Both the position numbers and the translations under genes were made by a program. From positions 7,255 through 71,254 of the forward strand of contig CALRCE010000003.1 in NCBI GenBank assembly GCA_943354505.1: a DNA stretch of 64,000 nucleotides, written 5' to 3'. Under the pieces are notes generated by a model that did not search any database, had not been told where the DNA came from, and worked only from the letters and a program-made list of their open reading frames with translations. Origin of the DNA: Candidatus Peribacteria bacterium (GTDB lineage: Bacteria; Patescibacteriota; Gracilibacteria; UBA1369; 2-02-FULL-48-14). Position 1 is the first letter of the stretch. Each line of letters opens with the position of its first letter. Below are positions 9,068 through 59,894 of this stretch, piece after piece.

Positions 9068-9502
9068 TGGTGGAGATGGCGGGAATCGAACCCGCGTCCA
9101 AAAAGGAAGTGCGAAACTCTCTACTTTCATAGTCTATCCTGTGTACGTTGAGCCAATAAAGGACAGACGAAAACGACCTCAACGTGTCTTCAAGGTTTCA
9201 GTTTACGAGTGGAACACAAGCCCCCGCAAACCTAAGCCCCGAGTATGACACCCGATCTCTCTCACAGGGCCTCAGAGAGTGGGCGTGACCGCGCTAAATG
9301 GCAGTCATGAAGAGGCGACTAGGCAAAAGCCAAAGCAGGAGCCAGACGAGCTGGAGCCATAGCCTTGAGAGCTGCTACGAGACCTTCTTCAGTAGTGTTT
9401 TTAGCACTTGAATTTGTCTGGACGGATTAGAGGTGGGACCAGACAACCACCTGAAAGCAAGCTTCGGACTTCGAGTCTTCTTGTCGAAACCTGTACATCC
9501 CC
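9068..9502 (-). ncRNA. ssrA: tmRNA (ssrA), about 435 nt
   Basis: On the minus strand, the 5' end is GGGGATGTACAGGTTTCGAC and the 3' end is GGACGCGGGTTCGATTCCCGCCATCTCCACCA. The acceptor pairing includes a G3:U wobble. An internal frame GCT AAA AAC ... GCT TTT GCC TAG spans 9405..9319. Confidence 0.85.
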
Positions 9503-9617
9503 ACGTTTTCAAAGAGCAAAGAAAGTCTACTAGGAAACCCCTTCTCCGTCCACCTATTTCCAAATGAGCTCGTTTGATGTAGAGTAAGGAGATTTATCAA
9601 AACTAAAACAAATCCTA

Positions 9618-10763
9618 ATGTCCCTCGAGTCCCACGACAACGGTCCCGAAAAGAGCACTGCAGAAAAAGCACGGGATTATCTGCGGGAGGGCGCTCACCT
9701 TTCTCTGTCCAATGTGATGCCAAAACTAGGGGACGATGGAAGTTTTATCGGACGAATAAATTTCATCAAACGAAATCCAAAGTTCGTGACGAATTTTAAC
9801 AAAAACAAACCAGAAGATATGCCGCCCCTGGACACGAAGAAAGACGCATACGGATACAAAGGGACTGAGGGGCAAAATATGGTCTACCTGCAGACCTATC
9901 TTGAAATAAAGGCCGCCGAACCGGAGAAAAAGGTCGAGGTAAAAGAAGTGGCCATCGCAGACCCGGACAAAGACCCCAGCATGCCCGCAAACAGCGAGGA
10001 GGACCTGGATGCGTATCTATCCTTCTTGCCCAAGAAAGAAGAGGTCAACACGGGAACAGTTTCTGAAGTAGAAATACACACATACCGCGAGGACTTAGGC
10101 TCAAATGAAACGGCCACCGTATCGCCTGTTACGAACGATCCTGCTAACCCCAAGGGGACAGAATCCCTTGTCGTCAGTGACAAGAAACCCGTGGTAGATG
10201 TTAAAGCAGGTCCCCTCGCCGACGTGCTTGGCAGCGAAGCTCCTAACGATAGAGCCGCCACTCTCGTCAAAGCATTGGCCAGCGAGTCGGGAGACATGAA
10301 ATACCTTGTTGAAGCCTGGCCCATGGCACTGTCTGCCGCTGCAACAACAGTTCAGGAAGGATTACAAAGCCAGGGCTTGAATCCTTACGACACTCTTGCC
10401 AATACCGTTTCTGCAAGTTTAAAGAGCGGGGATGTTGTCTTAAATTTAAAAGACGGCAGAACTATAACAACAGCCCTCCTGCCAGAGGACGCATGGTACC
10501 CAGCAGTGGACATTCGCGAGGGACTTCACAACGCTCCAATAGCCAAAAGGACTATCGAGCTCTCGGACGACCCCATCGAGTACACAGCGGCAGAACTAGC
10601 AGCAAAGGCTCGCTCCGAACAAATTGCAAGCATCAATGCCAGCAAGGACAAAATCCCTGACCCCTCGGTCTTCAGAGATGATGAGGAGTTCCAGTTCGAT
10701 GACGACGCAACATTCACAGCCAGCGCAAAGAAAGACGACGAGCCCGGCAAAAAGGATTCCTAA
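9618..10763 (+). CDS. Hypothetical acidic protein (orphan)
   Basis: 381-aa ORF with no TM helix, no signal peptide and no recognisable motif. Its codon usage looks more A/T-ending than its neighbours. Confidence 0.45.
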   Translation: MSLESHDNGPEKSTAEKARDYLREGAHLSLSNVMPKLGDDGSFIGRINFIKRNPKFVTNFNKNKPEDMPPLDTKKDAYGYKGTEGQNMVYLQTYLEIKAAEPEKKVEVKEVAIADPDKDPSMPANSEEDLDAYLSFLPKKEEVNTGTVSEVEIHTYREDLGSNETATVSPVTNDPANPKGTESLVVSDKKPVVDVKAGPLADVLGSEAPNDRAATLVKALASESGDMKYLVEAWPMALSAAATTVQEGLQSQGLNPYDTLANTVSASLKSGDVVLNLKDGRTITTALLPEDAWYPAVDIREGLHNAPIAKRTIELSDDPIEYTAAELAAKARSEQIASINASKDKIPDPSVFRDDEEFQFDDDATFTASAKKDDEPGKKDS

Positions 10764-21955: not shown

Positions 21956-23041
21956 ATGCAAGAACTCAAAGACCGCCTCAGCGCACTTCAAGAAGAGGTT
22001 AAAAAATCCATCGCCCACCTGGATTTGCCCGGCAAAAAAGACCGTCTCACCGGGCTCGAAGCGGAAATGTCCGCGCCTGATTTTTGGTCGGATCAAGCCA
22101 AGGCCAAAGTCGTGTCCAAAGAGGCAGGCCTCATCCGCAACACCATCGCCGCCTGGGAAGAACTCGCCGCCGACACCCAAGACCTTTGCGAGCTCCTAGA
22201 CCTCACGGACGAAGAAGACAAATCCGCCCTCGCCCAGCTCGAAGCCAGCCTCAAAGAAGTGGAAGCTCAGCACCACAGCCTCAGCGTGCAGCTCTACCTT
22301 TCCGGCCCCTACGACACCGCGAGCGCCATCCTCTCTTTTCATGCGGGAACCGGAGGCGTCGATGCCCAAGATTGGGCCGAAATGCTCATGCGCATGTACC
22401 TGCGTTACTGTGAAAACAAGGGTTGGAAAACCACTCAACTGGATCTGTCCACCGCCGAAACTGCAGGCATCAAGTCCGCGTCCTTTCGCGTTGAAGGCGA
22501 CTACATCTACGGCTACCTCAAACACGAACGAGGAGTCCATCGCCTGGTGCGCATCTCACCCTTCAACTCCAAAGGCACCCGCGAAACCTCCTTTGCAATG
22601 GTGGACGTGTCTCCCGAAATCGAACAAGCCGAACTCGAAATCCGCGACGACGAACTGGACTGGGAATTCATCCGTGCCAGCGGAGCCGGCGGCCAAAACG
22701 TAAATAAAGTCTCCAGCGCCGTGCGCCTCATTCACGTCCCAACGGGCCTCGTCGTGACCTGCCAAACCGAGCGCAGCCAAATCCAAAACCGTGAAAACGC
22801 CCTCAACATGCTCAAGTCCAAACTCCTCGCCATGCAAGAGCAAAACCATCTCAAAACCATTCAAGAGCTCACCGGCGAACACTTCAAAAACTCTTGGGGC
22901 AACCAGATCCGCTCCTACGTGCTCCAGCCCTACCAAATGGTCAAAGACCACCGCACCGATCACGAAACCAGCCAAGTGGATAAGGTCCTCAACGGAGACC
23001 TGGACGAATTCATCGAGGCTGAGTTAAAATCACAGTCATGA
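21956..23041 (+). CDS. prfB: Peptide chain release factor 2
   Basis: Start trimmed to MQELKDRL. SPF motif (RISPFNS) and GGQ (SGAGGQNVNK). The frame is continuous with no programmed frameshift site. TATAAT (21944-21949) lies 6 nt before the ATG. Confidence 0.9.
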   Translation: MQELKDRLSALQEEVKKSIAHLDLPGKKDRLTGLEAEMSAPDFWSDQAKAKVVSKEAGLIRNTIAAWEELAADTQDLCELLDLTDEEDKSALAQLEASLKEVEAQHHSLSVQLYLSGPYDTASAILSFHAGTGGVDAQDWAEMLMRMYLRYCENKGWKTTQLDLSTAETAGIKSASFRVEGDYIYGYLKHERGVHRLVRISPFNSKGTRETSFAMVDVSPEIEQAELEIRDDELDWEFIRASGAGGQNVNKVSSAVRLIHVPTGLVVTCQTERSQIQNRENALNMLKSKLLAMQEQNHLKTIQELTGEHFKNSWGNQIRSYVLQPYQMVKDHRTDHETSQVDKVLNGDLDEFIEAELKSQS

Positions 23042-23541
23042 CCCTCCCCGTCGAGCAAGGCACCGAGAACACCATTCTGCGCACGGTTTCCAAACCGGTG
23101 ACCCAGTTCACCGCCGAGCTGAAGAGTTTTGCCGAAAAAATGATCAAAACCATGCACGCCGAAAAAGGCGTGGGCATCGCAGCCCCTCAGGTTGGCCGCA
23201 ACATTCGTATGGCCATTGTGATGCTGAACCCTGGTGAAAAAAACGAGATCGTCTTCCCCATCGTCAACCCAGTGATTGTGGAGCGGTCTGAAGAAACCGA
23301 AGACGGTGAAGAAGGCTGCCTCAGCCTCCGTGGAGTGTGGGGAAAAGTCGCCCGTGCCTCTCACCTGGTGCTGCGCTTCAAAAATCTCAGAGGACAAGAA
23401 CAAACGCTCGTCTTGGAACACTTCAACGCCCGCATCATCCAACACGAAATCGACCACCTCGACGGGGTGCTCTTCATCGACCGCGCCTTCGACATCGAAG
23501 AGAAGAAACGCATCAAAAAACCAAAGAACGCAGAGATTTGA
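23038..23541 (+). CDS. def: Peptide deformylase
   Basis: 167 aa. Motifs GIAAPQVG, EGCLS and QHEIDHL. 4-nt overlap with prfB. Confidence 0.9.
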   Translation: MTLPVEQGTENTILRTVSKPVTQFTAELKSFAEKMIKTMHAEKGVGIAAPQVGRNIRMAIVMLNPGEKNEIVFPIVNPVIVERSEETEDGEEGCLSLRGVWGKVARASHLVLRFKNLRGQEQTLVLEHFNARIIQHEIDHLDGVLFIDRAFDIEEKKRIKKPKNAEI

Positions 23542-23549
23542 AAGAGGTC

Positions 23550-24098
23550 TTAAGCTTCATCGCCCTCTACAAAAACCCAAGCCGTTACCTCATCTGCTTC
23601 TCGGGCAGAGGTTTGTTCATCGCTAGACAGAGCAGTGTCCATGACTTGCTCAATAAGAGCGCGGTCCCCGCCCTGAGGAAGGTGAGGGGTGAGCTTGCCT
23701 CGAGCCTCGGCACCAAAAGTCTGAATGGCCCAGGCCACAACCACTGCTGCAGAGCGTGGGGTGGCCATCTCCAAAAGTGATAACTTAGTGTCCTCGGGGC
23801 AGCTGGGATTGGCCAATAACCTTTCAATGAACGGAAGGACGCCAGCCTTATTCGTGGACGTGCCAATGAACAAAGAACGGCTCACAAAGGCTTCGTAGGC
23901 ATGGGCCGGCAAGCCCTCCATTTTAGCGGCCTGAAAGGCACCTCGGTCTAGAACCAATTCGGGTAAACTCAACACGGCTGAAGCATCAGCACAAGTGTCC
24001 ACTGCGGCCCTAAAGGCCTGTTCGTCAAAAAAGCCAGAAATAACAGGGCCAACATTGGGTCTATCAGAGAAGCTTGGGCTTGGTGAGGCTGCATTCAT
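23550..24098 (-). CDS. Hypothetical acidic protein, candidate immunity/antitoxin partner of the upstream 878-aa protein
   Basis: 182-aa ORF starting 11 nt after the stop of the 878-aa gene. Acidic C-terminus (EADEVTAWVFVEGDEA). No recognisable domain. Confidence 0.45.
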   Translation of the reverse strand: MNAASPSPSFSDRPNVGPVISGFFDEQAFRAAVDTCADASAVLSLPELVLDRGAFQAAKMEGLPAHAYEAFVSRSLFIGTSTNKAGVLPFIERLLANPSCPEDTKLSLLEMATPRSAAVVVAWAIQTFGAEARGKLTPHLPQGGDRALIEQVMDTALSSDEQTSAREADEVTAWVFVEGDEA

Positions 24099-24109
24099 AA
24101 GTAAAGGGT

Positions 24110-26746
24110 TTAAAGATTGCGGTACACGGCATCGTGACTTCCCATGGTGTCCACGCGGAAACTTTTTGGGTCCCTGACGTTATCGCCAATACGGGCAAAT
24201 ATGATGCGATAATTTCCAGTGATTCTACACGCGTACGTGTTCCCGCCATTGCCTTTCAATCTGTGGAAATCAAGACCTCCGGCATTGGGGTCTTCACCTC
24301 GTATCACGGCGCCGACGGCTCCAAGAGCAGCAAGGGCATCAGCCTGCAGCCCTGCATCCAGCTTATTAAACGCGTTTTGTCCTGAAGGGGCAATATTTAG
24401 CTCGGGGAAACGAGCCACCAAGTCAATTTGTGGAGCAGGACCCTTGCCGTTGGATTCCAGGTCTTTCTTCTGAACATAATCATCCAGGAACTCTCGCATC
24501 ACGGGCTTCCTCCCCTTGGCGAGGGCATTTCTTAAAGCACCAAATAAGCTTCTCCTCTCTTCAAGGGTACAAGCCTGGATCTCCGGCAAAATCTCGTCTA
24601 AGAAGCTCTCCCAAACAGCTCTCTCAGAACCTGCTTCCGCAAGCAGCGCATCAATGGATGCTTGCACCTCATTAGGCCTCCGCACAACATCCGATTGGCC
24701 AGCAGCCAGTTTTTGCTCCAGAGGCGCAACGCCCTCCGCCCAAATAAAGTCGAGAGCCTCCGCAAACTGAGGCCATTTTGCCTTCACAAGGTCGGGGACT
24801 CCCAGCAAGGCATAGTTTATTGTAGTGGAACCACTCTCTTCACGAGCCAGCCTGGCGAGAGTTTTCCCCAGCTCCCCACTAATAGACGAAAGACCTTCGG
24901 TTGCCGCTACGCCCACTCCAGCCATAGCCAGTGCGACAGCATAATCTTCAGGAGACAATGTTTTGCCCTGCACGTCAGCTCCGAGCCAGCTTGACCCTAG
25001 GCCGATCGTAGCATCCGTGCCCGCTTCGCCAAGAGTTGCGGTTAAAGGGTTTGCGCCAGCAGCCACCAATCCTGTGCGGATCAGGCCTCCAGCAGCACCT
25101 CCCACCGCTCCCCCCAGAATCACGGGGACCCCGTATTCGCCAGCCAATTCCTCGGGACTATCCCATCCTTTTCCACTCGCCAATTGAGCGCCTCCAGCAC
25201 TGATCGCACCCGCAAGAGCCAAAGGAGCAGCGCCTCCACCCGTTGCCGCAATCACCCCGAAAGCAACTCCCATTCCAGCCAAAAACAAACCAACAGCCCG
25301 TCCCCCGGCAGCAACCCCTTGAGTGGTTTGGTCAGAAAAGTTAAGCCATCCGGAACCGGTGGCTGCCATCAACTGGTCAAAAGCCAATCTTTTATCTTCA
25401 GACAAAGCCACGCCAGCCAATTCCTCTAAGTCCTCAACAGACATGGCGGAGGCACCACCGCTCATCGCAGCATCAAAATCTGCCGAAGCGGTTTGGAGAA
25501 AAGGAAGAGCAACTTCACACAATTCATTTTGCACGGCAGCAGGATCCAAAACCTCTCCACGCTGGCTCTCTTCAAGATAACGACACGCCGTGTACTGCAT
25601 GGCCAAAGCCTTCATGTCGCAGGGGTCTGCCGAAGTCGCCAGTAAACCCTGCATCGCAGTCAATAAGCTTTTTGTGTCGTCATTTTGTTCTGCTTCTATC
25701 AAGGCGGGCAAATCTGTCGCCCAAGTGCTGCGTTGCTGTTCAACAAAAGCAACGAGAGGGTTCTCCACCCCCTGCCGCTCTTCGTATCGGAGGGCTAAAG
25801 TCTCCCAGTCCAAGCCTTCTTTCAAGAGTTTAATAGCGGTATCCGAGTCCACAAGATCACTATCAATATCACCACCCTCTCCTCGCAAAAAAGTTGCCAC
25901 ACGAGTGTTTAAAGCTTGATAAGAATCCGGATCAGTTTGAGAGCGCAAAGCAAGTTTCAGTCGAATGGAAGAAACGCTGGCGTCCCTAAAACGACGGTAA
26001 CGCCCTTTTAAAACCTCACTTTGGCAGTCATCTTCGTCGATCTCGGCCATTCGTTGCTCAAACCACTCGATAGAATCCTCAGCACTTTTAGGAGCAAGAG
26101 TCGCTTCCACGTAGCCCTCCACGTCCACATCCTGGCCATAGGCGAGGGCATTCACATTCGCCCTAATGCCAGCCGCAAAGTCGGCGAAGAGCGAAACATC
26201 CTCTGCTTGCGCTGTCACCAAAAGACGACGATTTGGCAACGCTTCCCACTCCGTTCCAAGCGGGGCAGTGGCCCCAAGGGCCAGTCCAATTTCATGCAAA
26301 GAAGCATCCGTTTCGTGCATTAAAGCAGCAGCAGAGGCTTCATAGCTGTCAGGAGGGAAAAGAGAAGCCATTGGACGAGTAGGATCGAAAGTTTGAGCAA
26401 GCTCCAGGTAACCGGCAAGAAAAGAAGGATCCGCATACGAGGGTGCAACACCAGCAAAGTCGCCGAGTTCGTCAGGAGAAGGGGCTGTATTTCGAAGCCG
26501 ATCGCGTATGGATAAATACATACCAGCAGCGCCCTCAAATTCACCCGAATTCGCAGCAGTTGCGGTCTCCAAAACACCAGTGGAGGCACGCGAAGCCAGT
26601 CCCAGCTGTTCCATGACCGCAGCATTGCCATACGCTGCCCCAACCCCAAGGGGAATCCCTGAACTCTCTAACGAACCAGAAAGGTCTTGAGAAACATCGC
26701 CAGAACTCTCGTCCGGCTCAGAGTAACGTTGTCTGGAAGCTCCCAT
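24110..26746 (-). CDS. Large orphan protein with a Gly-zipper hydrophobic block and a C-terminal RelE/ParE-fold toxin-like module
   Basis: 878 aa. Residues about 477-618 are Gly/Ala-rich and hydrophobic. The last ~90 aa read LDFHRLKGNGGNTYACRITGNYRIIFARIGDN..FRVDTMGSHDAVYRN, which matches the RelE/ParE core pattern. Confidence 0.6.
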   Translation of the reverse strand: MGASRQRYSEPDESSGDVSQDLSGSLESSGIPLGVGAAYGNAAVMEQLGLASRASTGVLETATAANSGEFEGAAGMYLSIRDRLRNTAPSPDELGDFAGVAPSYADPSFLAGYLELAQTFDPTRPMASLFPPDSYEASAAALMHETDASLHEIGLALGATAPLGTEWEALPNRRLLVTAQAEDVSLFADFAAGIRANVNALAYGQDVDVEGYVEATLAPKSAEDSIEWFEQRMAEIDEDDCQSEVLKGRYRRFRDASVSSIRLKLALRSQTDPDSYQALNTRVATFLRGEGGDIDSDLVDSDTAIKLLKEGLDWETLALRYEERQGVENPLVAFVEQQRSTWATDLPALIEAEQNDDTKSLLTAMQGLLATSADPCDMKALAMQYTACRYLEESQRGEVLDPAAVQNELCEVALPFLQTASADFDAAMSGGASAMSVEDLEELAGVALSEDKRLAFDQLMAATGSGWLNFSDQTTQGVAAGGRAVGLFLAGMGVAFGVIAATGGGAAPLALAGAISAGGAQLASGKGWDSPEELAGEYGVPVILGGAVGGAAGGLIRTGLVAAGANPLTATLGEAGTDATIGLGSSWLGADVQGKTLSPEDYAVALAMAGVGVAATEGLSSISGELGKTLARLAREESGSTTINYALLGVPDLVKAKWPQFAEALDFIWAEGVAPLEQKLAAGQSDVVRRPNEVQASIDALLAEAGSERAVWESFLDEILPEIQACTLEERRSLFGALRNALAKGRKPVMREFLDDYVQKKDLESNGKGPAPQIDLVARFPELNIAPSGQNAFNKLDAGLQADALAALGAVGAVIRGEDPNAGGLDFHRLKGNGGNTYACRITGNYRIIFARIGDNVRDPKSFRVDTMGSHDAVYRNL

Positions 26747-26859
26747 ATGTTTTAATTAAGGTTTAAAACCGTATCAAAATAATATTTATTACGTCAAGCG
26801 AAGTTTTGCGCTCCCTGTCCCATTTCCCCAGGAGCAACGTTTTCAAGCGCAGAGGCCGG

Positions 26860-28485
26860 TTATCTTTTAGGCGGGCTGTCGCTAGTAGTTTGTGCACTTG
26901 AGTATTGCGAAGGTCCGTAAAACCACGCGTAAGCACCAGCAAGGGACGAAAGGGCAAAAATGGTTCCTAGGACGGCCAAAACGCGCTTACAGTCACCCAG
27001 ATTTGTGCCGGTCAATTGAAGGGGAAAAGGCCGAGCCGCCGCTACTCCTCCAAGAATAGGGGCTCGTCTCTCAACTGCATCTGAGCCCCGCCCCACCCCA
27101 GCATACTGTTTCGGCTCAGGAATGTGGTTACTAAGATCGTAGAAGGGGTCGTCATCGGGCTCAATCTCGATAGGGCCGTCTGCCATTGGCATCATTTCTA
27201 AAAACCTGTCACCCGTAGCTCTATCAGAAGCGAGACTCGGCGTGATTGGACCCTCGTGCGAATTACCATCTAATTCCGGAGCCATTTGACCCAAAACTTC
27301 GTCCGGGTTGTTTGCACAAACAGTGTCACCATCGCTGATAAAAGAGCGATGAGGAAGAGTTTCTAGACCTTCATCATCCACGCGACTCAGCAAAGTCTCT
27401 CTTGCTACCTCACACGCATTTCTCATATGCGTCAAATATCCTACCGCATCTTCAACACGACCTTGAAGGCTTGGTACAGTCGGGCAGCGAAGAAAGTCCA
27501 GTAAGTAATCCTTGATCAAAGCAAGACCCCTTCCTTCTAGCCCATTCTCATCCATTACACACACGCTTTCTGGAACAAGATTAGCCACTCTTATGAGCCT
27601 AGCCCACACATCATGCAATTGTTTTGCGTTGATGCCCACGTCACAGCCACGAAACTGTTCGATCAGCGCCTCTAAAAAATGAATGAAGCAGCGGGCTTCT
27701 TTTGCCGTGATCTTACCAGTCTGTTTAGTACCGACTAAGACCCACACATAGTCGTCTTTAAAGTCACTGGTCGCACCAAGATCTTTAGGCAGTGTAGAAG
27801 CAGAAGTGAATTCAACAGAATAGGCAGCGGGAGGTGAAACCTCGAATCTCTCCACAGCACCCTTCAGTCGTCCAAGAGCACTTTGCAAACCTCGAGCCAA
27901 CGTAAGTACCTCGTCATGAGTTCTTGTGCAGCATAACTCCCTAAGGAACGATTGAAATTCTTCATCCAACTTCAGTTGACTTCCCCCATCGCGTCTATTG
28001 ACCATTTCTACTGAGACGTTATAGACCGCCCTTATATCACCAAAAAACCGAACCAAAGCCTCACGGATTTCCTCGACGGGAAGGGCCGCACATTGAAGGA
28101 TTTCATCAACACGCTTGATCGCAGGGGCCAAACCGAGTGAAAGAGCCGACGGCTGATGGCCCAGCACAGGGAATACTGCCACAGGGGGAATGGGTCTGGG
28201 CGGCACCACTTTAGCAGCCTCTCTCGCACTGGCCGCCTCCTCTGCCCGACGAGCCCCCTCTCGCTCAGCCTCCTCGCGATCTCTAGCTTTTTGCAAAGGA
28301 GCATCCGCTACTCGAGCACGATAAGCTTCCATAAATCGGCTTACTTCAAATTCACTCATTACCGTTGTCCCATCGCCATCCAAAGCATCCATTTGTCCAA
28401 GAGCATCAACATCGTCACAACCTAGGCTTACCGTTGAGGCGTCAGCGAAGGCATCTTCACAGGTGAGAGCTAAAGTATCTGACAT
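26860..28485 (-). CDS. Hypothetical tail-anchored protein
   Basis: 541 aa. Acidic N-terminus, a charged helix KARDREEAEREGARRAEEAASAREAAK, and a single C-terminal TM helix VLAVLGTIFALSSLAGAYAWFYG. Confidence 0.5.
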   Translation of the reverse strand: MSDTLALTCEDAFADASTVSLGCDDVDALGQMDALDGDGTTVMSEFEVSRFMEAYRARVADAPLQKARDREEAEREGARRAEEAASAREAAKVVPPRPIPPVAVFPVLGHQPSALSLGLAPAIKRVDEILQCAALPVEEIREALVRFFGDIRAVYNVSVEMVNRRDGGSQLKLDEEFQSFLRELCCTRTHDEVLTLARGLQSALGRLKGAVERFEVSPPAAYSVEFTSASTLPKDLGATSDFKDDYVWVLVGTKQTGKITAKEARCFIHFLEALIEQFRGCDVGINAKQLHDVWARLIRVANLVPESVCVMDENGLEGRGLALIKDYLLDFLRCPTVPSLQGRVEDAVGYLTHMRNACEVARETLLSRVDDEGLETLPHRSFISDGDTVCANNPDEVLGQMAPELDGNSHEGPITPSLASDRATGDRFLEMMPMADGPIEIEPDDDPFYDLSNHIPEPKQYAGVGRGSDAVERRAPILGGVAAARPFPLQLTGTNLGDCKRVLAVLGTIFALSSLAGAYAWFYGPSQYSSAQTTSDSPPKR

Positions 28486-28634
28486 ACTCGAATAGCAAAA
28501 GTACAGAAAGGCTGAATTTCAGCATATAATGATAGTTAAGTCAATAGTAAACGCCGTGAGTGACGAAATTCGGTAAGTGGCCAAAGAAGGTGCCCACGTT
28601 TAATCCTGCCGTGGCTGCTTCTCGCTGTGAGGAG

Positions 28635-29669
28635 TTACAAAAAATCACGCAAAAACCTCCCCAGTCTGTACAAGGACCACCATAGCCGTCGGTACACAAA
28701 GACCCTTGCCCCGGGGTATTCGACACGGCTCCCGCCAAAACGCGTTTTGAACTGGGTCACTCCCGCCAAGGCATGCTTCTCGCCCGCCACTCCTTCGGGA
28801 GCGATGCCTAAGAAGTCGTAGCTTTTAAACCCGGCCTTTTTAGCCTCGTAGATCGCATGCCACTGCAAAAGGTAAGGCGCCATGACCTTGCGGTCTTCGT
28901 TGGACGAAGCACCGAAGTAATACGTGGCCGTATCGCCAAACAAAGTGACGAGCATTCCGCCCACAATCCGCCCTTCAAAATCCGCGACATACAGCACCGC
29001 ATCGTCACCCAAAATCCGCAAAAAATCCTTATAGAACGAAAGAGGGTGCACTCCAAAGCCATCCCGCGCTCCCGTTTGGGCCAAGATGGCATAGAAAGCG
29101 GCCAAATCCTTCTCCTCGCCCCGTCGCACGACAACACCCGCCTTTTCAGCCATCTTGATGTTGTAGCGGCCTTTTTGTGCCATTTGTTCCAGCAGCGCTT
29201 TTTCAGAAAGCCCCAAATCTACAGGCAGCGTATGCGAAGGCAAATATTCCTCTTTCCCGGGCGCGCCTTTTAGCGTCAACCCTTCGGGCAAGATTCCAGG
29301 CTCCAACCGCAAAAAAACATCTCCGTTCAGGCGCGCCCAATTCCGGCACGCTTCTTGCAAAAGATCCCACGCTTCTTCGGCTTCCTCATCCGCGAGCCCA
29401 TTCTTTAAAACCGCCCCCCGCGGCGCCCAGAGCCAGGTTTTTCCAAAGCCCATTTCTTGCCGCACCACCAAAAGACTCGCCAAAAACGCACCCTTTTTTT
29501 CATCGCCTTCCTCTTCAACCACCGCGAAAACTCTAAAGCCAGGCCGCCCCTTCAGGCTAGTCTGCAATTCTCCCCACGCCCAAGTCTGCTCAATCGGGCT
29601 GCCCGCCTGCCCCGCCACAAACTTCGCCAATTCCTTCTGATGAGATGAGTCGAGAACAGTGCTGTGCAT
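28635..29669 (-). CDS. FemAB-family peptidyltransferase (lipid II peptide-bridge/branch formation)
   Basis: 344 aa with the length and pattern of the FemX/FemAB family (QTWAWGELQ ... FKTRFGG). Confidence 0.75.
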   Translation of the reverse strand: MHSTVLDSSHQKELAKFVAGQAGSPIEQTWAWGELQTSLKGRPGFRVFAVVEEEGDEKKGAFLASLLVVRQEMGFGKTWLWAPRGAVLKNGLADEEAEEAWDLLQEACRNWARLNGDVFLRLEPGILPEGLTLKGAPGKEEYLPSHTLPVDLGLSEKALLEQMAQKGRYNIKMAEKAGVVVRRGEEKDLAAFYAILAQTGARDGFGVHPLSFYKDFLRILGDDAVLYVADFEGRIVGGMLVTLFGDTATYYFGASSNEDRKVMAPYLLQWHAIYEAKKAGFKSYDFLGIAPEGVAGEKHALAGVTQFKTRFGGSRVEYPGARVFVYRRLWWSLYRLGRFLRDFL

Positions 29670-29740
29670 GAGTGAAGTTTAACAGAAGGAGTCATGAGCG
29701 GTGGGCTGAAGCTATTTACAAAACGCAAAAAGATGCTAAA

Positions 29741-30085
29741 ATGATTGGCCCTAACCAAAATTCTATGGGAGGCCGTCCAGGTGAAAATGAAAGTTCCGAA
29801 AATATTTATTCCCGAGTAGGCGTGATGGTCCAACGTGGGGCAGGAGCGCAAATTGAGCTTTTAGCAGCTCCTTTCTCGCCTGCGACCTTCGACAGTGCCC
29901 TGATGTGCACAGCGGGCGAAAGCACTCGCGCAGATCGAGACGCTTTCGGCCCAGTAGGGAAAGAACCCCAAACGACAGAGGCCCCAAGAGGAACCTTGCC
30001 AGAAGGAACCGACCTCACAGAGGTATACGGATGCACGGCAGATGAACTGCAAGCATTTTTTGCGAGACCAGAGAACAAGCTTTAG
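29741..30085 (+). CDS. Small hypothetical protein
   Basis: The ORF frame is open from 29672; the first ATG is at 29741. A strong intrinsic terminator follows. The composition is low-complexity, so coding status is uncertain. Confidence 0.3.
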   Translation: MIGPNQNSMGGRPGENESSENIYSRVGVMVQRGAGAQIELLAAPFSPATFDSALMCTAGESTRADRDAFGPVGKEPQTTEAPRGTLPEGTDLTEVYGCTADELQAFFARPENKL

Positions 30086-30102
30086 TCACCCGACCACCTA
30101 AA

Positions 30103-30131
30103 AGAGCCCCAGTCGGGGCTCTTTATTTTTT
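30103..30131 (+). terminator. Rho-independent terminator
   Basis: Hairpin AGAGCCCC-AGTC-GGGGCTCT (30103-30122) followed by TTATTTTTT. Confidence 0.6.
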
Positions 30132-30179
30132 CTTAAAGCAGAGAATCCGGTAACATCCTCACGTTCACCCACCCCTCCC

Positions 30180-31205
30180 ATGCCAAACAAAATCACACTT
30201 TCCCTGCTTAGCCTCAGCCTTTTGTTCGCCACGGCTTGCAACAGCGGCGAAGTCCAGCCCGAGCCTGTCACTCCAGAGGCCACTCTGGATCCAAAAGACA
30301 CAAGGTACACGATGTTTATTTTGAACGTCCACGACTGGCTTCTCGGCGAAGATTCCATCGAAACGGTGAACAAAGTCATCGACATTCACGAGGAGTACGA
30401 CATCCCAGTCAACATTTACTTAACCGACCCCATTGTTCAGCTCTACGTCGAGCAAGCGCCTGACCTCATCGAACGGCTGAAAACCTCAGAAGTGGTGACC
30501 GTTTCTTACCACACCCGTCCACCCACCCCTTACTACTCGGACTTTGACATTATTGGCCTCCACGAACTCAGCGACCAAGAGATCTACGACACGATCATGG
30601 ACTACGAAACCCACCGCCTCGACTTGAGCACCGGCCTGCCCACCGAAGAAGAAGGCGGTTACGCCTATCTCACCGAACTCATGGGCTACGCGCCAGTGAC
30701 GGTTGGGGTTTTCAGCACCTATAAAAACGTAGAAACTCAAGCCTTAAAGGTCTACAAAGACCTTGGAGCGACCTTCACGCTGGTGCACGAAAAAACCAGC
30801 GCCCTGGGCGACACCAAAGGCGGTCTTTACTTGAGACCAGAACAGATCGAACTGAAGCTGTACGAATCCAAGGCCTTAGACTCAACGGCCCAAGGAGTCA
30901 TCGAAGACGCCATGAACGCTTACACCGGGGACACGAGCGACGGAATCTTCATGAACATCAAATTCCACGAAGACAATTTTTACCTCAACGGCACCCCCTG
31001 GCTTTCCAACTTTTACACAGATGGAAAGGACTCCGCGCGCAAAGAAACGCCCTTCGACATCGAAACGGTGGACGTAAAGGAAAAAACAAACGTCGAAAAA
31101 ACTCACATGTGGGAGCTTTACGAACAAGGGGTAAAATACGTCAAAGACAACGCAGAAACCATGCACCCCATCAGCGAGGCGGACCTTCAGGACATGCTCA
31201 ACTAG
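30180..31205 (+). CDS. Putative lipoprotein of unknown function
   Basis: 341 aa. Signal peptide with lipobox-like LLFATAC followed by NSGE. Confidence 0.55.
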   Translation: MPNKITLSLLSLSLLFATACNSGEVQPEPVTPEATLDPKDTRYTMFILNVHDWLLGEDSIETVNKVIDIHEEYDIPVNIYLTDPIVQLYVEQAPDLIERLKTSEVVTVSYHTRPPTPYYSDFDIIGLHELSDQEIYDTIMDYETHRLDLSTGLPTEEEGGYAYLTELMGYAPVTVGVFSTYKNVETQALKVYKDLGATFTLVHEKTSALGDTKGGLYLRPEQIELKLYESKALDSTAQGVIEDAMNAYTGDTSDGIFMNIKFHEDNFYLNGTPWLSNFYTDGKDSARKETPFDIETVDVKEKTNVEKTHMWELYEQGVKYVKDNAETMHPISEADLQDMLN

Positions 31206-31212
31206 GCAACGC

Positions 31213-32445
31213 CTACTTTTGCATCTTCTGCCTAATGAACGCAGGAATGTCGTATTCGCTGCCGCCGTCTTCACTCATAGGGAGTGAAGGATTGCTGGGG
31301 CGAAGTTCCGTGTTGGATTTTGGAAGTCCAGAAGGCTGTTGCATGGGCTTTTGCATTCCAACCGCACTCGTTCCCATCGGGCGGAATTCGCCGAGAGGAC
31401 GAGTGATCGAAACACCCCGTTTGATGTCGTCGAATCCAGTCGCCACCACCGTGATCTTGATTTCTCCAGTGTAAGAGTCGTTGATGACCGCTCCGAAGAT
31501 GATGTTGGCCTCAGGGTCCGCCGCTTCCGTGATGATGCGAGCCGCTTCATCCACTTCAAACATAGACAAGTCGCTTCCTCCAGTGATGTTGAACAAAATT
31601 CCTTTTGCTCCTTGGATATCGAGTTCGAGCAAAGGACTTTCTACTGCAGCACGAGCCGCTTCGGTCGCACGGTTTTCTCCTGTTCCATATCCGATTCCCA
31701 TGAGGGCGGATCCGGCGTTTTCCATGATCGCTTTCACATCGGCAAAGTCCACGTTGATCATTCCGTGTACGGTGATCAAATCGGAGATGCCTTGGACACC
31801 TTGTCGGAGTACATCGTCCACCACCATGAAGGCCTCCGTGAGAGGAGTCTTTTTGTCGATGAGCGACAAAATCTTGTCGTTCGGGATCGTGATCAGCGTA
31901 TCAACCTTATTTTTGAGGTTCTCGAGTCCTTCTTCGGCTTGTGTACGACGACGGTGTCCTTCAAACGTGAAGGGTTTGGTCACCACAGCGACGGTCAGAA
32001 TTCCCATGTTGCGAGCGATCTCGGCAATGACCGGTGCAGCTCCCGTTCCCGTTCCTCCTCCAAGTCCACAAGTGATGAAGAGCATCTCAGTTCCCTCCAA
32101 CGCCTGTTTGATTTCTTCTGTGGATTCCTCCGCCGCTTGTCGGCCCACATCGGGGTGACTTCCAGCGCCAAGACCACGAGTCGTGGCCTTACCAATGTTG
32201 ATTTTGGTGGCCGCTTCGCTGTGGTACAAAGCTTGAGCATCGGTGTTCACCGCAATGAACTCAATCCCCTTGATGTTGGATTTGATCATGCGGTTGAGCG
32301 CGTTTCCGCCTCCCCCTCCGGCACCCATCACTTTGATGCGGGCAACAGGAGTCACTTCAGAAGGGTTCACTTCGAAGTTTTTACGGGGCTTGGAGCCGGA
32401 GAACAGCGTTTTCAAGCTGTCGTCGTTTTGAGATGAGCTGGCCAT
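31213..32445 (-). CDS. ftsZ: Cell division GTPase FtsZ
   Basis: 410 aa. Motifs [31 protein letters not shown] and NVDFADV. Confidence 0.95.
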
Positions 32446-36204: not shown

Positions 36205-36602
36205 TCCAAATTGTCGACACCTCCCGTCGCGGAAGAGCCACCTTCTGGCAGGCGGAAATTTGAAATGAAGTCGAAAACCTCACCCAGGTTGATGTACTGA
36301 ACGACGTTCAGTCCAACCGCATTTCCCACCATGATCACAATCACCACCGAAAGCATGGTCACCACCAGCCCCACAATCGCGTAACGGATCGTGGCAACGG
36401 CTTGTTTGATCTTGCCCTCGTCTCCTCCAGAAAGGATGAAAGAAATACCTCCAAAGAAGATGAACACCACGCTCAAAAATCCAGCGACGATGATCCCATA
36501 GGCAATCGTGCGATTCACAATTTCTAAGGCATTGTAGTTTTGAGCCACGTCCAAAATAGAACCTTCGTTCACAGTAGCCACAATCAGCGGAAGAAAAGAC
36601 AT
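36201..36602 (-). CDS. TrbC/VirB2-like (T4SS-pilin-like) small membrane protein
   Basis: 133 aa with two TM helices flanking ILSGGDEGKIKQAVATIRYAIVGLVV, the motif typical of CPR T4SS_pilin-type proteins. Confidence 0.5.
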   Translation of the reverse strand: MSFLPLIVATVNEGSILDVAQNYNALEIVNRTIAYGIIVAGFLSVVFIFFGGISFILSGGDEGKIKQAVATIRYAIVGLVVTMLSVVIVIMVGNAVGLNVVQYINLGEVFDFISNFRLPEGGSSATGGVDNLD

Positions 36603-53610: not shown

Positions 53611-55437
53611 ATGAAAAAAAAGAAACGACCTCATCTCAAATGGGCGCTCCTCGTGACGGGCGTCGCAGCCCTTGCTCTTGGAGGCACCGCCTTGGCTTAC
53701 CAAGCAGCCCACCTTCCCGAAGAAGCCTATGCGGCGAAGACGCGCATCACAGGTCTCTTTGACGAAACCCCAGCCTTGGAAGGCAGCTTCACGACCTTCG
53801 AAGCACTCGATGAGGCCACCCAAGAGTGGGCTCAGGCTCGCCTGTTGCAACCCCTCACCCTGACTTCCGAACGAGGTTCTCTGCCCGTGACCCTCACCGC
53901 TTTGGGAGTGAACCCAGGCTTCGACACCGTGGACCAAGAACTCAAAGAATTCATGAGCACCGCCAGTGCGTTTGAAAAAATCCGCACCTTCCTTTTTGGC
54001 CAAAGTTTCGAAGTGCCTCTTTCTATCGACCAGACTGTTTTCGACCGAACCCTCGCTGAAACCGGCTTCGAACAAGCGAACAAAAACGCCAGCTTCATGT
54101 GGGACGGAAAAGCCGTGACCATTCAGCCCGGCCAAATCGGCTACGCGATTCAAAAAGAGGAACTGCTCACCTTCCTTCAAAGCAGCTTCACTGAAGCAAG
54201 CCTGCCAGAATCCTTCACGCTGACCTTGCTCGCCGACGAACCCGAAGTCACCGACGCCGAATTGGTGGCCCTGCTCCCCACCGCCGAAGAACTCGCCACA
54301 AAAGTGGTGACGCTCCAAGACGAGTTTGGCAACACCTGGGACTTGGCCATGAAAGATCACTTGGATTGGGTCCTGCCCGCCGACCCATGGACTCTCGATG
54401 AAGCGGCCTTCGTGAGCTACGCCGAAAGCACCCTCGTGCCCGAAGTGGAAGAAGATCCCACGGGAGCGGTGATCACCCAAAACGAAGACGGAAGCATCAC
54501 CTTTGAAGGCAGCGCCCGCTTCGGAAAAGAATTGGACAAACTCGGCCTCTTAGATTTGGTGCTTGAAAAACTGATGCCCGAGTCCGAAGGCGCACCCATT
54601 GCTCTCCCCATCAACAAAGTCATGCCCGCCGTCACCGTTCCCGACGCGCTCAAAGAAAAAGGCATCACCGATTTGGTGGGCCTCGGCTACTCCGATTTTG
54701 GTGGGTCTCCCAGCGGACGCATCCACAACATTCAAACCGGGATCGCTCAATACAACGGCATCCTCATTGAGCAAGGTGCCGAGTTCTCCTTCATGGGCCA
54801 GATGAGTCCCGTGGACGCGGAACACGGCTTCCTTCCCGAACTCGTGATCAAAGGTGACGAAACCATTCCCGAATACGGAGGCGGACTCTGCCAAATCTCT
54901 TCCACGATGTTCCGCGCCGCTTTGTACACCGGCCTCCCCATCACCTCGAGACGCAACCACTCCTACGCGGTTTCCTACTACGCTCGTCCTTATGGGTACG
55001 GTTTGGACGCCACGGTTTACGATCCAGCCCCCGACCTTAAATTCGTGAACGACACGCCCGCCGCCCTCTTGGTTCAAGCCTACACCGACGGCAATTCAGC
55101 CTTCTATGTTTTCTACGGAACCAACGATCAGCGCACCGTGACCATGGAAGGGCCTTACGCCTACGACTACCGCTCCATTCCGGACTCCGTAATCACCTAC
55201 ACCGACAAGCTCGAACCCGGCGTCCAGGAGCTCAAAGAACACGGCCACACCGGCTTCACCGTGGCTTGGTACCGCATCGTCACCTACCCCACTGGCTCTA
55301 CAAGCACCTACGCCGCCACCGTCAGTGGAGTGAAGGAACAAATTCACTCCGTTTACGAAGCCCGCCCAGCCAAGTATTGGGAAGGACAAGCGGGGGCCAC
55401 CGGAGCAGACGCAGAAAGTGCCACCCCCAGTAACTAA
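53611..55437 (+). CDS. VanW-family protein (YoaR-like)
   Basis: 608 aa. N-terminal TM helix and a VanW core (GGGLCQISSTMFRAALYTGLPITSRRNHSY). Confidence 0.8.
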   Translation: MKKKKRPHLKWALLVTGVAALALGGTALAYQAAHLPEEAYAAKTRITGLFDETPALEGSFTTFEALDEATQEWAQARLLQPLTLTSERGSLPVTLTALGVNPGFDTVDQELKEFMSTASAFEKIRTFLFGQSFEVPLSIDQTVFDRTLAETGFEQANKNASFMWDGKAVTIQPGQIGYAIQKEELLTFLQSSFTEASLPESFTLTLLADEPEVTDAELVALLPTAEELATKVVTLQDEFGNTWDLAMKDHLDWVLPADPWTLDEAAFVSYAESTLVPEVEEDPTGAVITQNEDGSITFEGSARFGKELDKLGLLDLVLEKLMPESEGAPIALPINKVMPAVTVPDALKEKGITDLVGLGYSDFGGSPSGRIHNIQTGIAQYNGILIEQGAEFSFMGQMSPVDAEHGFLPELVIKGDETIPEYGGGLCQISSTMFRAALYTGLPITSRRNHSYAVSYYARPYGYGLDATVYDPAPDLKFVNDTPAALLVQAYTDGNSAFYVFYGTNDQRTVTMEGPYAYDYRSIPDSVITYTDKLEPGVQELKEHGHTGFTVAWYRIVTYPTGSTSTYAATVSGVKEQIHSVYEARPAKYWEGQAGATGADAESATPSN

Positions 55438-58571: not shown

Positions 58572-59894
58572 ATGATAGATCTCAATGACCCAGAAGCAGT
58601 GGACGCTCAGTACGAACGTTATAGGGGCCATCGTGGCGCCTACACCGGCGCGGGAATGGGCAACTTAGCACGCCGTGACGGGCACTATCTAGTGGACACG
58701 GACGGAGTCCCTCATCTGGACGCCCACAGCCAAATTCTGTGCAGCATTTTGGGAGGAAGAAACACGACGGCGGAGGTCAGCACTCTCACTGATCATACAG
58801 GCCTCAATGCGGTAGGAGCCGACTTCACTCATTCCTACATTGATGAGCTGCGCGGACGTTTGCAGCGGCACTTGGCCGCAGAACTAGGTGGCGACTACGA
58901 AGTGGAATTCGCTTCCAGCGGAACCGCTGCCAACACCGCAGCTCTACGGGTGAGCCAAGCTGCTTTGGAAGGGAAAATGCACGTCATGGGTCTGGACGAA
59001 GGCTATCACGGGAACGGAGCCACGCTCTTTCTTTTGCGACATCCCGCTTGGCAGCAACCTCATGGATCAGATTTACCCAGCAGACTGCCAGTGAGCTTCG
59101 CAGGCTTTGAAGAAACCTCAGTGGGAAGGAATTTTTTTGAGGATTACGTAGCAAAAACCGAAGAAGACCTTGCTCGCGGCTTCTCTCCGCATTTGATCGC
59201 CGAAGGAGGAGTACAAGGAGTAGCCGGATTCCGAAACATCGATCTCGCGAGTCTACAAGACATGGCCAGAGACGCTCACCGCCGTGATGGACATGTCCAC
59301 TTCGATGGAGTACAAACCCAACCCTGGCGCACCGGCACCGGACGCTTCTTCCCCGCCGGCCTCGTGGACTCCAGCGATCCTTTGACCATCCCTGACTTCG
59401 TAACCAGCGCCAAAGGCTCTGGAGACGGCGAACCTCTTGCTTGGGCGGCATTTCGTAAAGAAGTGATGGAGGCAGCACGAGCCAACGGCCTTGGAAAAGG
59501 TTACGACACCTACGGGCAAACCATTCGTGGAGCAGTGGCAGGAATCCTGGTGGATGAGGCCGTTTCCGACCCCGCTTTTCAAGGCAATGTCCGTGCCCGT
59601 GGAGAACAAATCGAAGCTGGTTTCGCTGAACTCATGGCTCGCTTCCCTGGCATTGTGACCGGTCAAAATGGCATGGGTCTGATGCGTGCTCTAGACTTGA
59701 GGACGCCTGAAAACGTAGCTGCCTTCCGCAGAATTGGAGTCAGTGGCCCTGCGCGTTTGAGAATGGTCGTGGGCGCAGGCGGTCTTCGAGGCAACATCTT
59801 GCGTTTTGGTCCACGTCTGGACATCACCGAAGAAGTCGCCGCAAACCTCCTCAGTCGCACAGGTGGTATCTTAGAGCAAATGGAACGAGCCTAA
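58572..59894 (+). CDS. Divergent class-III PLP aminotransferase-like protein
   Basis: 440 aa. SSGTAANTAALRV, EGYHGNG and FDGVQT..RTG are present, and TSAKGSGDG carries a candidate Schiff-base Lys. The usual DE.Q motif reads DGVQ. Confidence 0.6.
   Translation: MIDLNDPEAVDAQYERYRGHRGAYTGAGMGNLARRDGHYLVDTDGVPHLDAHSQILCSILGGRNTTAEVSTLTDHTGLNAVGADFTHSYIDELRGRLQRHLAAELGGDYEVEFASSGTAANTAALRVSQAALEGKMHVMGLDEGYHGNGATLFLLRHPAWQQPHGSDLPSRLPVSFAGFEETSVGRNFFEDYVAKTEEDLARGFSPHLIAEGGVQGVAGFRNIDLASLQDMARDAHRRDGHVHFDGVQTQPWRTGTGRFFPAGLVDSSDPLTIPDFVTSAKGSGDGEPLAWAAFRKEVMEAARANGLGKGYDTYGQTIRGAVAGILVDEAVSDPAFQGNVRARGEQIEAGFAELMARFPGIVTGQNGMGLMRALDLRTPENVAAFRRIGVSGPARLRMVVGAGGLRGNILRFGPRLDITEEVAANLLSRTGGILEQMERA

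Follow-up and report, generated by a model that had tools for sequence, protein, structure and literature searches.

What kind of system is encoded by the three adjacent minus-strand genes that lie between def and a FemAB-family gene in a Candidatus Peribacteria bacterium (contig CALRCE010000003.1)? How bacteria of the Candidate Phyla Radiation (CPR; Patescibacteria) interact with, exploit or kill the cells on which they depend is largely unknown, and our literature search found no effector or toxin-delivery family described for Peregrinibacteria. We analyzed a 64,000-nucleotide (nt) stretch of the contig, called the window below, in which the three genes A541, B878 and C182 form a cassette. 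A first reading of the bare sequence (the original prediction) had taken them for an orphan cassette with the logic of a polymorphic toxin and its immunity gene, in a CPR-like organism. The organism is indeed a Candidatus Peregrinibacteria member, tiny and in all probability dependent on a host, and the open reading frame (ORF) list gives three minus-strand ORFs with the predicted coordinates and gaps. We found that B878 joins a ~770-residue carrier, from a family in which close relatives exchange their C-termini, to a C-terminal domain homologous to HigB-type toxins. All of the evidence on the cassette is computational. The three genes are:

26860..28485, minus strand: A541 (541 amino acids, aa), from the ORF list
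24110..26746, minus strand: B878 (878 aa), carrier plus putative C-terminal toxin domain, from the ORF, its relatives and an AlphaFold model
23550..24098, minus strand: C182 (182 aa), from the ORF list

Exhaustive HMMER searching of 1.84 billion representatives found 27 relatives of B878, with E values from 2e-26 to 4e-5. It was the only search to find the family; word-indexed searches with B878 or with alignment A1 came back empty, the index probably being saturated by Gly/Ala words. The relatives are 369 to 3221 aa long (26 of the 27 at least 724 aa), and all of them align to B878 aa ~160-640 only. Conserved motifs span both the helical domain and the hydrophobic block of this segment (alignments A1 and A3). 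The taxonomically labeled relatives all come from Peribacteraceae, Peribacteria or Peregrinibacteria metagenome-assembled genomes (MAGs). No close relative of B878 was found in GTDB representative genomes and JGI metagenomes, and no Pfam or NCBIfam family is common to the members of the carrier module. Judged by these searches, the module is an undescribed family, so far seen only in Peregrinibacteria/CPR. The predicted orphan status held for A541 and C182; it did not hold for B878, which has these distant relatives. The parts of B878 are as follows:

24827..26269, minus strand: family-defining module (aa ~160-640), helical domain plus Gly/Ala-rich hydrophobic segments, from HMMER alignments
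24872..25318, minus strand: Gly/Ala-rich hydrophobic block (aa 477-625), putative membrane-inserting helices, from hydropathy and composition
24422..24829, minus strand: helical linker (aa ~640-775) from carrier to toxin domain, from AlphaFold helices
24113..24421, minus strand: predicted HigB-type toxin domain of the RelE/ParE superfamily (aa ~776-878), from profile matches

The C-termini of the family differ even where the loci are orthologous. In three Peribacteria contigs (L007, L008 and L010) the genes that flank the family gene are 81-97% identical, i.e., the loci are orthologous. The family proteins at these loci (1252, 997 and 1390 aa) are 67-80% identical for the first ~700-800 residues and unrelated from there on. 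The clade closest to B878 (P0002, P0003, P0005 and P0006) shows the same break near aa 800. By alignment this position is ~aa 770 of B878, where the HigB-like end starts. The payloads recognized among the relatives are a calpain-like protease (three cases), GGDEF, FHA, AAA and metallophosphoesterase domains; most payloads match nothing. C-termini that are unrelated even at orthologous loci are a hallmark of polymorphic toxins, and the comparison of close relatives, looking for a common N-terminal region with unrelated C-terminal domains, found just this pattern. The predicted polymorphic-toxin logic was thereby borne out, the relatives keeping their N-terminal ~600-800 aa and exchanging the rest. 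In Peribacteria relatives (L007, L009, L010, L017 and P0020) a conserved "GFTREQ..LL.MGVCG" motif is followed by a Pro-rich linker, "G[VI]PPPPP". These relatives also have in common a recurrent unannotated C-terminal module ("...LPESEA.AL...HP...R.FF..."), of which L017 has two copies, and this points to a shuffling of payload domains as cassettes.

The last ~100 residues of B878 had been predicted to form a RelE/ParE-like module. Pfam PF05015 (HigB-like_toxin) matched the isolated C-terminus with E 0.0044 (17.9 bits; gathering score 27), and NCBIfam RelE_StbE TIGR02385 gave E 0.1 (13.1 bits; cut-off 27.9), so that neither curated cut-off was reached. PHROG family phrog_3066 ("toxin of TA system") matched with E 8e-5. 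In tblastn against plasmids the matches were weak; of the 25 best, 21 fell on proteins annotated as RelE/ParE-family toxins and another on a "plasmid maintenance system killer". Six of the plasmid matches were retrieved, and each is a 92-aa HigB followed by HigA. A profile of these six toxins matches the Proteus vulgaris HigB structures in the PDB with E 7e-26, and hhalign aligned the B878 end to them with 97.4% probability. A hidden Markov model (HMM) of the six toxins, built without B878, gave the B878 end 39.3 bits; the best score among 5000 shuffled sequences was 7.1. The global alignment spans the whole 92-residue HigB. Assignment of the B878 C-terminus to the RelE/ParE superfamily, and within it to the HigB type, is thus well supported by profile comparison, and the predicted module can be specified accordingly.

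HigB activity requires His54, Asp90, Tyr91 and His92 (PMC5027501). H828 and H871 of B878 align with His54 and His92. The positions of Asp90 and Tyr91 are taken by G869 and S870, and an extra 7-residue tail holds Y875. RNase activity of the domain is therefore plausible from the alignment, not assured. AlphaFold placed a helix at 803-815, strands at 828-832, 837-843 and 847-853 and a helix at 869-877, mostly with a predicted local distance difference test score (pLDDT) below 50. At this low confidence, the order of secondary structure elements is compatible with a microbial-RNase fold, which has helices at the N-terminus, then an antiparallel beta-sheet and finally a C-terminal helix or tail.

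Upstream of the toxin domain, AlphaFold run with the family alignment modeled B878 aa 50-470 as helical (pLDDT 70-94), and aa 479-692 came out with low confidence. Helices were also modeled in the linker at aa 690-765 (pLDDT ~60-70). No relatives of the linker (aa ~640-775) were detected, and Pfam gave only sub-threshold noise there. A Foldseek search of the B878 model against the PDB returned only generic alpha-solenoid matches (E of 0.016 or higher), and PDB sequence searches with B878 or its C-terminus gave nothing useful. Hydropathy analysis located the hydrophobic Gly/Ala-rich segments within aa 477-622, where Gly and Ala make up 45% of the residues, in line with the predicted Gly/Ala hydrophobic block. 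In the relatives the block is kept as a ~40-residue hydrophobic hairpin. An enrichment of the GxxxG (glycine-zipper) pattern in the block was not supported, as GxxxG counts do not exceed those expected from shuffles and composition. A colicin/pyocin pore domain was considered too and rejected: PDB profile matches were compositional and reached only E 0.014 or higher, and the match to pyocin S5 was lost with a trimmed profile. The part of profiles A1 and A6 that covers B878 aa ~440-510 repeatedly matched paramyxovirus F proteins in their fusion-peptide region, though weakly (E 0.014-0.2). These matches are probably compositional, though consistent with a membrane-inserting segment.

C182 starts 11 nt after B878. 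It is acidic (25 D+E, 13 K+R, net charge about -12), and its single-sequence AlphaFold model is all-helical and unreliable (pLDDT 49). No significant family match was found in Pfam, NCBIfam, PADLOC and PHROG, the only match being phrog_28971 at E 0.072. There was no PDB sequence match and no helix-turn-helix (HTH), ribbon-helix-helix or HigA match, and its cluster at 90% identity has one member; the orphan status of C182 comes from family libraries and the cluster look-up together. C182 is the probable cognate immunity or antitoxin partner of the B878 toxin domain, because of the 11-nt spacing, the codon usage that it shares with the cassette and the parallel with small ORFs downstream of the relatives. 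In the clade closest to B878 the family gene is followed, 15-16 nt later, by a small ORF. The downstream ORFs of P0002 (127 aa) and P0006 (112 aa) are unrelated, as are the C-termini of these two proteins (n = 2 only). At the P0004 locus, genes of 606, 1164 and 122 aa follow one another with gaps of 9-10 nt.

The closest clade also has a conserved small gene upstream. This 109-aa helical ORF ends 1-3 nt before the family gene, is 33-61% identical across three loci and may serve as a chaperone or assist in export. It was found at the following positions and has no counterpart in the window:

L003 5105-5434: 109-aa upstream ORF, translationally coupled
L023 8991-9320: 109-aa upstream ORF, translationally coupled
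L038 273-602: 109-aa upstream ORF, translationally coupled

In the window, A541 stands in the place of the small upstream ORFs of the relatives and does not resemble them. It is acidic and, as predicted, has a single hydrophobic helix near its C-terminus (Kyte-Doolittle maximum 1.87 in a 19-residue window). No match to A541 was found in Pfam, NCBIfam, PADLOC, PHROG or the PDB, and a word-indexed search of 5.8 billion proteins returned only A541 itself. Neither A541 nor C182 is similar to genes beside the relatives or elsewhere in the window. A541 is tied to the cassette by position and common codon usage only, and whether it belongs to the system is uncertain. Between A541 and B878 there is a gap in which a scan for consensus promoters found no site.

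26920..26985, minus strand: predicted C-terminal transmembrane helix of A541 (aa ~501-522; tail anchor), from hydropathy
26747..26859, minus strand: A541-B878 gap, 113 nt, AT-rich, possibly an internal promoter, from the sequence

The cassette is flanked by core genes on both sides. The other housekeeping genes of the window encode Ddl, ABC-F, Mfd, DnaN, RNase J, a Mur ligase, a flippase-like protein, PrfB, FtsZ, FtsA and a 5'-3' exonuclease. The window FtsA shares a cluster (90% identity or above) with its counterpart from a complete Candidatus Peregrinibacteria genome of 1.34 Mb. Between ftsA and the flippase-like gene, the window has the same order of genes as this genome and several related MAGs (66-82% nucleotide identity). 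In blastn comparisons with the related Peregrinibacteria genomes, synteny ends at window position 23508 and restarts at 28677, and no counterpart of 23509-28676 was found in any related genome examined. The locus is thus neither invariant nor housekeeping, either of which would have told against the original prediction.

23038..23541, plus strand: def, convergent with the cassette, its end 8 nt from the end of C182
28635..29669, minus strand: FemAB-family gene, 149 nt upstream of A541
23509..28676, minus strand: 5.17-kb lineage-specific insertion in the femAB-def slot (the cassette and its intergenic DNA), from blastn synteny

In eight related contigs (L025, L026, L029 and L032-L036) the slot is empty or otherwise filled:

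L025: empty, femAB and def overlap
L026: genes of 167 aa and 104 aa
L029/L030: one gene of 199 aa
L032-L036: one gene of 110 or 149 aa

A slot gene family of ~104-149 aa is common to L026 and L032-L036 (42-97% identical), and the 199-aa gene of L029 is unrelated to it. No likeness of the slot genes in related genomes to the cassette genes was found. The varying slot contents and the break in synteny mark the cassette as a lineage-specific insertion of 5.17 kb, and the femAB-def junction as a variable slot and accessory-gene hotspot in this Peregrinibacteria lineage. At the cassette borders there were neither flanking repeats nor an integrase, a tRNA or an RNA family. Both junctions are covered by independent Logan contigs (L001 and L024) from the same sample (ERR5863123); the arrangement is therefore not an assembly chimera. 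The nearby femAB-ftsZ interval (29605-31214) is also unconserved, and related genomes hold other genes there; in the window it includes a plus-strand 341-aa ORF (30180-31205) with a lipoprotein-like signal start ("LLFATAC") and no Pfam match. In L026 a PemK-family toxin gene (113 aa) and a 77-aa partner lie beside ftsA (9095-9653). This pair is absent from the window, which indicates that small toxin modules come and go in the neighborhood.

The codon usage of the cassette had been predicted to differ from that of its flanks, and the comparison of G+C content at third codon positions (GC3) agrees. GC3 of the cassette genes is 0.43, 0.47 and 0.51, as against 0.55-0.70 in 21 of the 24 other window genes; the exceptions outside the cassette are dnaN (0.48), the orphan gene of 747 aa (0.49) and 58572..59894 (0.53). 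GC1 and GC2 are raised in the cassette relative to the other window genes. Antisense ORFs over the cassette do not exceed 110 aa, and those over the neighboring housekeeping genes reach 359-628 aa. The predicted lack of long antisense ORFs is therefore real, and the cassette lacks them because its codon usage differs from that of its neighbors. The window as a whole has a strand-specific third-position bias, with C3 of ~0.45-0.52 in plus-strand genes and G3 of ~0.34-0.41 in most minus-strand housekeeping genes, and GC skew is negative throughout. This bias gives rise to the very long antisense ORFs, e.g., those across from the RNase J gene (628 aa) and the flippase-like gene (464 aa). A Shine-Dalgarno-like motif was found in none of the 29 gene starts examined across the window, so such a comparison is uninformative for the cassette genes. 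Many window genes, B878 and C182 among them, have an A/T-rich "TTAAA"-like element ~8-15 nt before the ATG. The orphan gene mentioned above (55434-57677, minus strand, 747 aa, GC3 0.485) has no Pfam or PHROG match, contains internal repeats ("...SFDP..." and "YP.RF" motifs) and may be another foreign or accessory gene. A transfer-messenger RNA gene lies at 9068-9502 on the minus strand, and its tag peptide is AKNTTEEGLVAALKAMAPARLAPALAFA.

The mechanism that we favor builds on the observed gene arrangement, insertion, exchange of C-termini and HigB-type homology. We give an even chance to the reading that B878 is an effector of polymorphic-toxin type, made up of carrier and payload, that C182 is its immunity protein and that the hydrophobic block serves membrane anchoring or translocation. 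The carrier of ~770 residues would have three parts in this order: an all-helical domain, the Gly/Ala-rich hydrophobic helices, which would lie against or within a membrane, and the linker. Within the family it would hold interchangeable C-terminal payloads; in B878 the payload is the HigB/RelE-type end of ~100 residues, which most likely cuts mRNA on the ribosome. C182 is probably co-translated with B878 from the same transcript, and it most likely binds and neutralizes the toxin domain in the producer. B878 would either be anchored at the cell envelope or pass across it by export, and the payload would act in another cell, either a competitor or a host bacterium. A541, linked to the other two genes by position, may be a membrane accessory factor. 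Horizontal acquisition of the cassette, as an accessory islet, is part of the same reading and stands at the same even chance.

A number of observations weigh against this reading. In B878 neither a signal peptide nor any known domain associated with secretion was found (by hydropathy, and by Pfam and NCBIfam at E <= 1). Both negatives had been part of the original prediction: a hydrophobic N-terminus was found in none of the three proteins (by hydropathy only), and Rhs, LXG, WXG, PAAR, TPS/FHA-1 and MafB are unmatched at E <= 1, as is MuF. With just two of the four HigB catalytic residues in place, the domain may have lost its activity or may act in another way, and the AlphaFold confidence of the C-terminus is low. 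After C182 the end of def follows within 8 nt, with no orphan toxin or immunity cassettes downstream. C182 and A541 are without relatives in which co-variation with the payload could show. Some relatives do not have the expected neighbors. In L009 the family gene is followed by a Dtd-like gene and then by a 636-aa RelA/SpoT-like ORF (assigned by reading the sequence alone), and the nearest downstream ORF in L007 is PP2C-like (PF13672, 23.5 bits; cut-off 24). The GGDEF, FHA and AAA payloads of the relatives are typical cytoplasmic signaling domains. Lastly, the cassette is known from one sample only.

Several of these points would be expected if B878 never left its producer. It may stay in the membrane with both ends in the cytoplasm, as an intracellular membrane-tethered toxin-antitoxin or defense (abortive-infection-like) module, which we regard as possible but somewhat unlikely. 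C182 would then restrain the HigB-like domain until the N-terminal module senses an infection or a membrane signal, at which the RNase is set free and arrests the cell; the relatives would employ other cytoplasmic effector or signaling domains in the same way. The missing signal peptide fits this explanation, and so does the hydrophobic block of the relatives, which resembles a two-helix hairpin and would therefore put both ends on the same side of the membrane. GGDEF, FHA, AAA and metallophosphoesterase payloads need cytoplasmic substrates, the toxin-first gene order is that of higBA loci, and fast C-terminal turnover is known in defense systems too. However, none of the three proteins has a PADLOC-DB match at E <= 1, and C182 has no detectable DNA-binding or HigA-like domain. 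A carrier of ~770 residues, together with the Pro-rich linkers before the payload in relatives, is more typical of exported or surface effectors, and the conserved small helical ORF upstream resembles export helper or chaperone arrangements.

The loss of two of the four HigB catalytic residues may be taken further. B878 could be a structural membrane or surface protein with a degenerate, inactive HigB-like end, and C182 and A541 could be unrelated hypothetical genes, so that the cassette would be a non-functional assortment of three accessory genes in a variable slot. The slot does take unrelated genes in other genomes, 113 nt separate A541 from B878, and for the orphans A541 and C182 structure information is either of low confidence or missing. 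We consider such an assortment improbable: the same deviant codon usage runs through all three genes, the 11-nt spacing of B878 and C182 parallels the 9-16 nt at the relatives, and the HigB core motif is well kept (39 bits). The deviant codon usage of the insertion would also suit a prophage or mobile-element remnant, in which B878, being long and helical with Gly/Ala-rich hydrophobic segments, would be a tape-measure-like or polyvalent protein, and its toxin domain matches a PHROG family. This origin is very improbable indeed, given that the borders have no integrase, flanking repeats or tRNA, that there is no other PHROG match, that no relatives were found among 2.9 million viral contigs and that the relatives sit amid housekeeping genes.

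The favored carrier-plus-payload reading has a stronger form, which we think unlikely. The conserved carrier module of ~600-800 residues would be a CPR-specific, self-inserting or self-translocating delivery device, with the conserved 109-aa helper aiding in some clades. Through it, Peregrinibacteria would bring interchangeable enzymes, such as an RNase, a protease or a cyclase, into the cells on which they live. If true, this would be the first candidate host-directed effector system of the phylum, and the cassette in the window would be its toxin/immunity version. A type IV secretion system (T4SS)-like apparatus could be a candidate export route. The window has a minus-strand gene (36213-36593) that is 78% identical to an ORF annotated as PF18895 (T4SS_pilin) in related genomes. 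In L026/L027 (L026 5445-6977) a T4SS_pilin gene is followed by one for a 378-aa NADase_transloc (PF25302) protein; the latter has no tblastn match in the window. Whatever its route, the B878 family combines a conserved carrier with rapidly exchanged payloads and has neither a Pfam/NCBIfam family nor a solved structure. B878 itself offers a tractable putative RNase toxin and a candidate immunity gene, a handle on whether the family is antagonistic.

Tox-RelE is a recognized polymorphic-toxin payload (Zhang et al., 2012; PMC3482391). Like the known toxins of this type, B878 has a conserved N-terminal part, an exchangeable C-terminal domain predicted to have the RelE (Barnase-EndoU-Colicin-RelE, BECR) fold and a small gene directly downstream, and the C-termini of its family are replaced between close relatives, as in polymorphic toxins generally. 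The known Tox-RelE toxins are associated with export of the type II secretion system kind, RHS repeats, HINT peptidases and Imm54 (PMC3482391), all of which are absent from the cassette. B878 differs from them further in its undescribed carrier, so far restricted to Peregrinibacteria, and in having no secretion signal and no downstream orphan cassettes. In comparison with HigB-HigA of Proteus vulgaris (PDB 4MCT/4PX8), the last ~100 residues of B878 align along the whole of HigB, and the toxin likewise comes first and the partner second. Unlike HigB, the B878 toxin domain is fused to a membrane-associated carrier, and C182 has no similarity to HTH proteins or HigA. B878/C182 is thus not a higBA type II module.

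The LXG toxins of the type VIIb secretion system have small helical Lap helpers, and prePAAR/Rhs effectors of the type VI secretion system have transmembrane segments and Eag chaperones. The gene order of the closest clade (a small helical ORF, a large toxin with a variable C-terminus and a small variable ORF) is similar to both, as are the Gly/Ala-rich hydrophobic helices within the effector. On the other hand, there is no LXG, WXG100, PAAR, Rhs or DUF1795 match in the cassette, which has the 541-aa tail-anchored protein in place of the 109-aa helper. The ~40-residue Ala/Gly-rich hydrophobic hairpin after amphipathic helices recalls pore-forming colicins and pyocins and viral fusion peptides; the profile matches, with E 0.014 for paramyxovirus F fusion peptides and E 0.14 for pyocin S5, fall short of significance and seem to reflect composition. 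Unlike in colicins and pyocins, the hydrophobic block belongs to the conserved carrier of the B878 family and not to the variable payload. The logic of the system is that of a polymorphic toxin with a payload of a known kind; what is new is the absence of a known delivery element, the restriction to one lineage and the carrier module itself.

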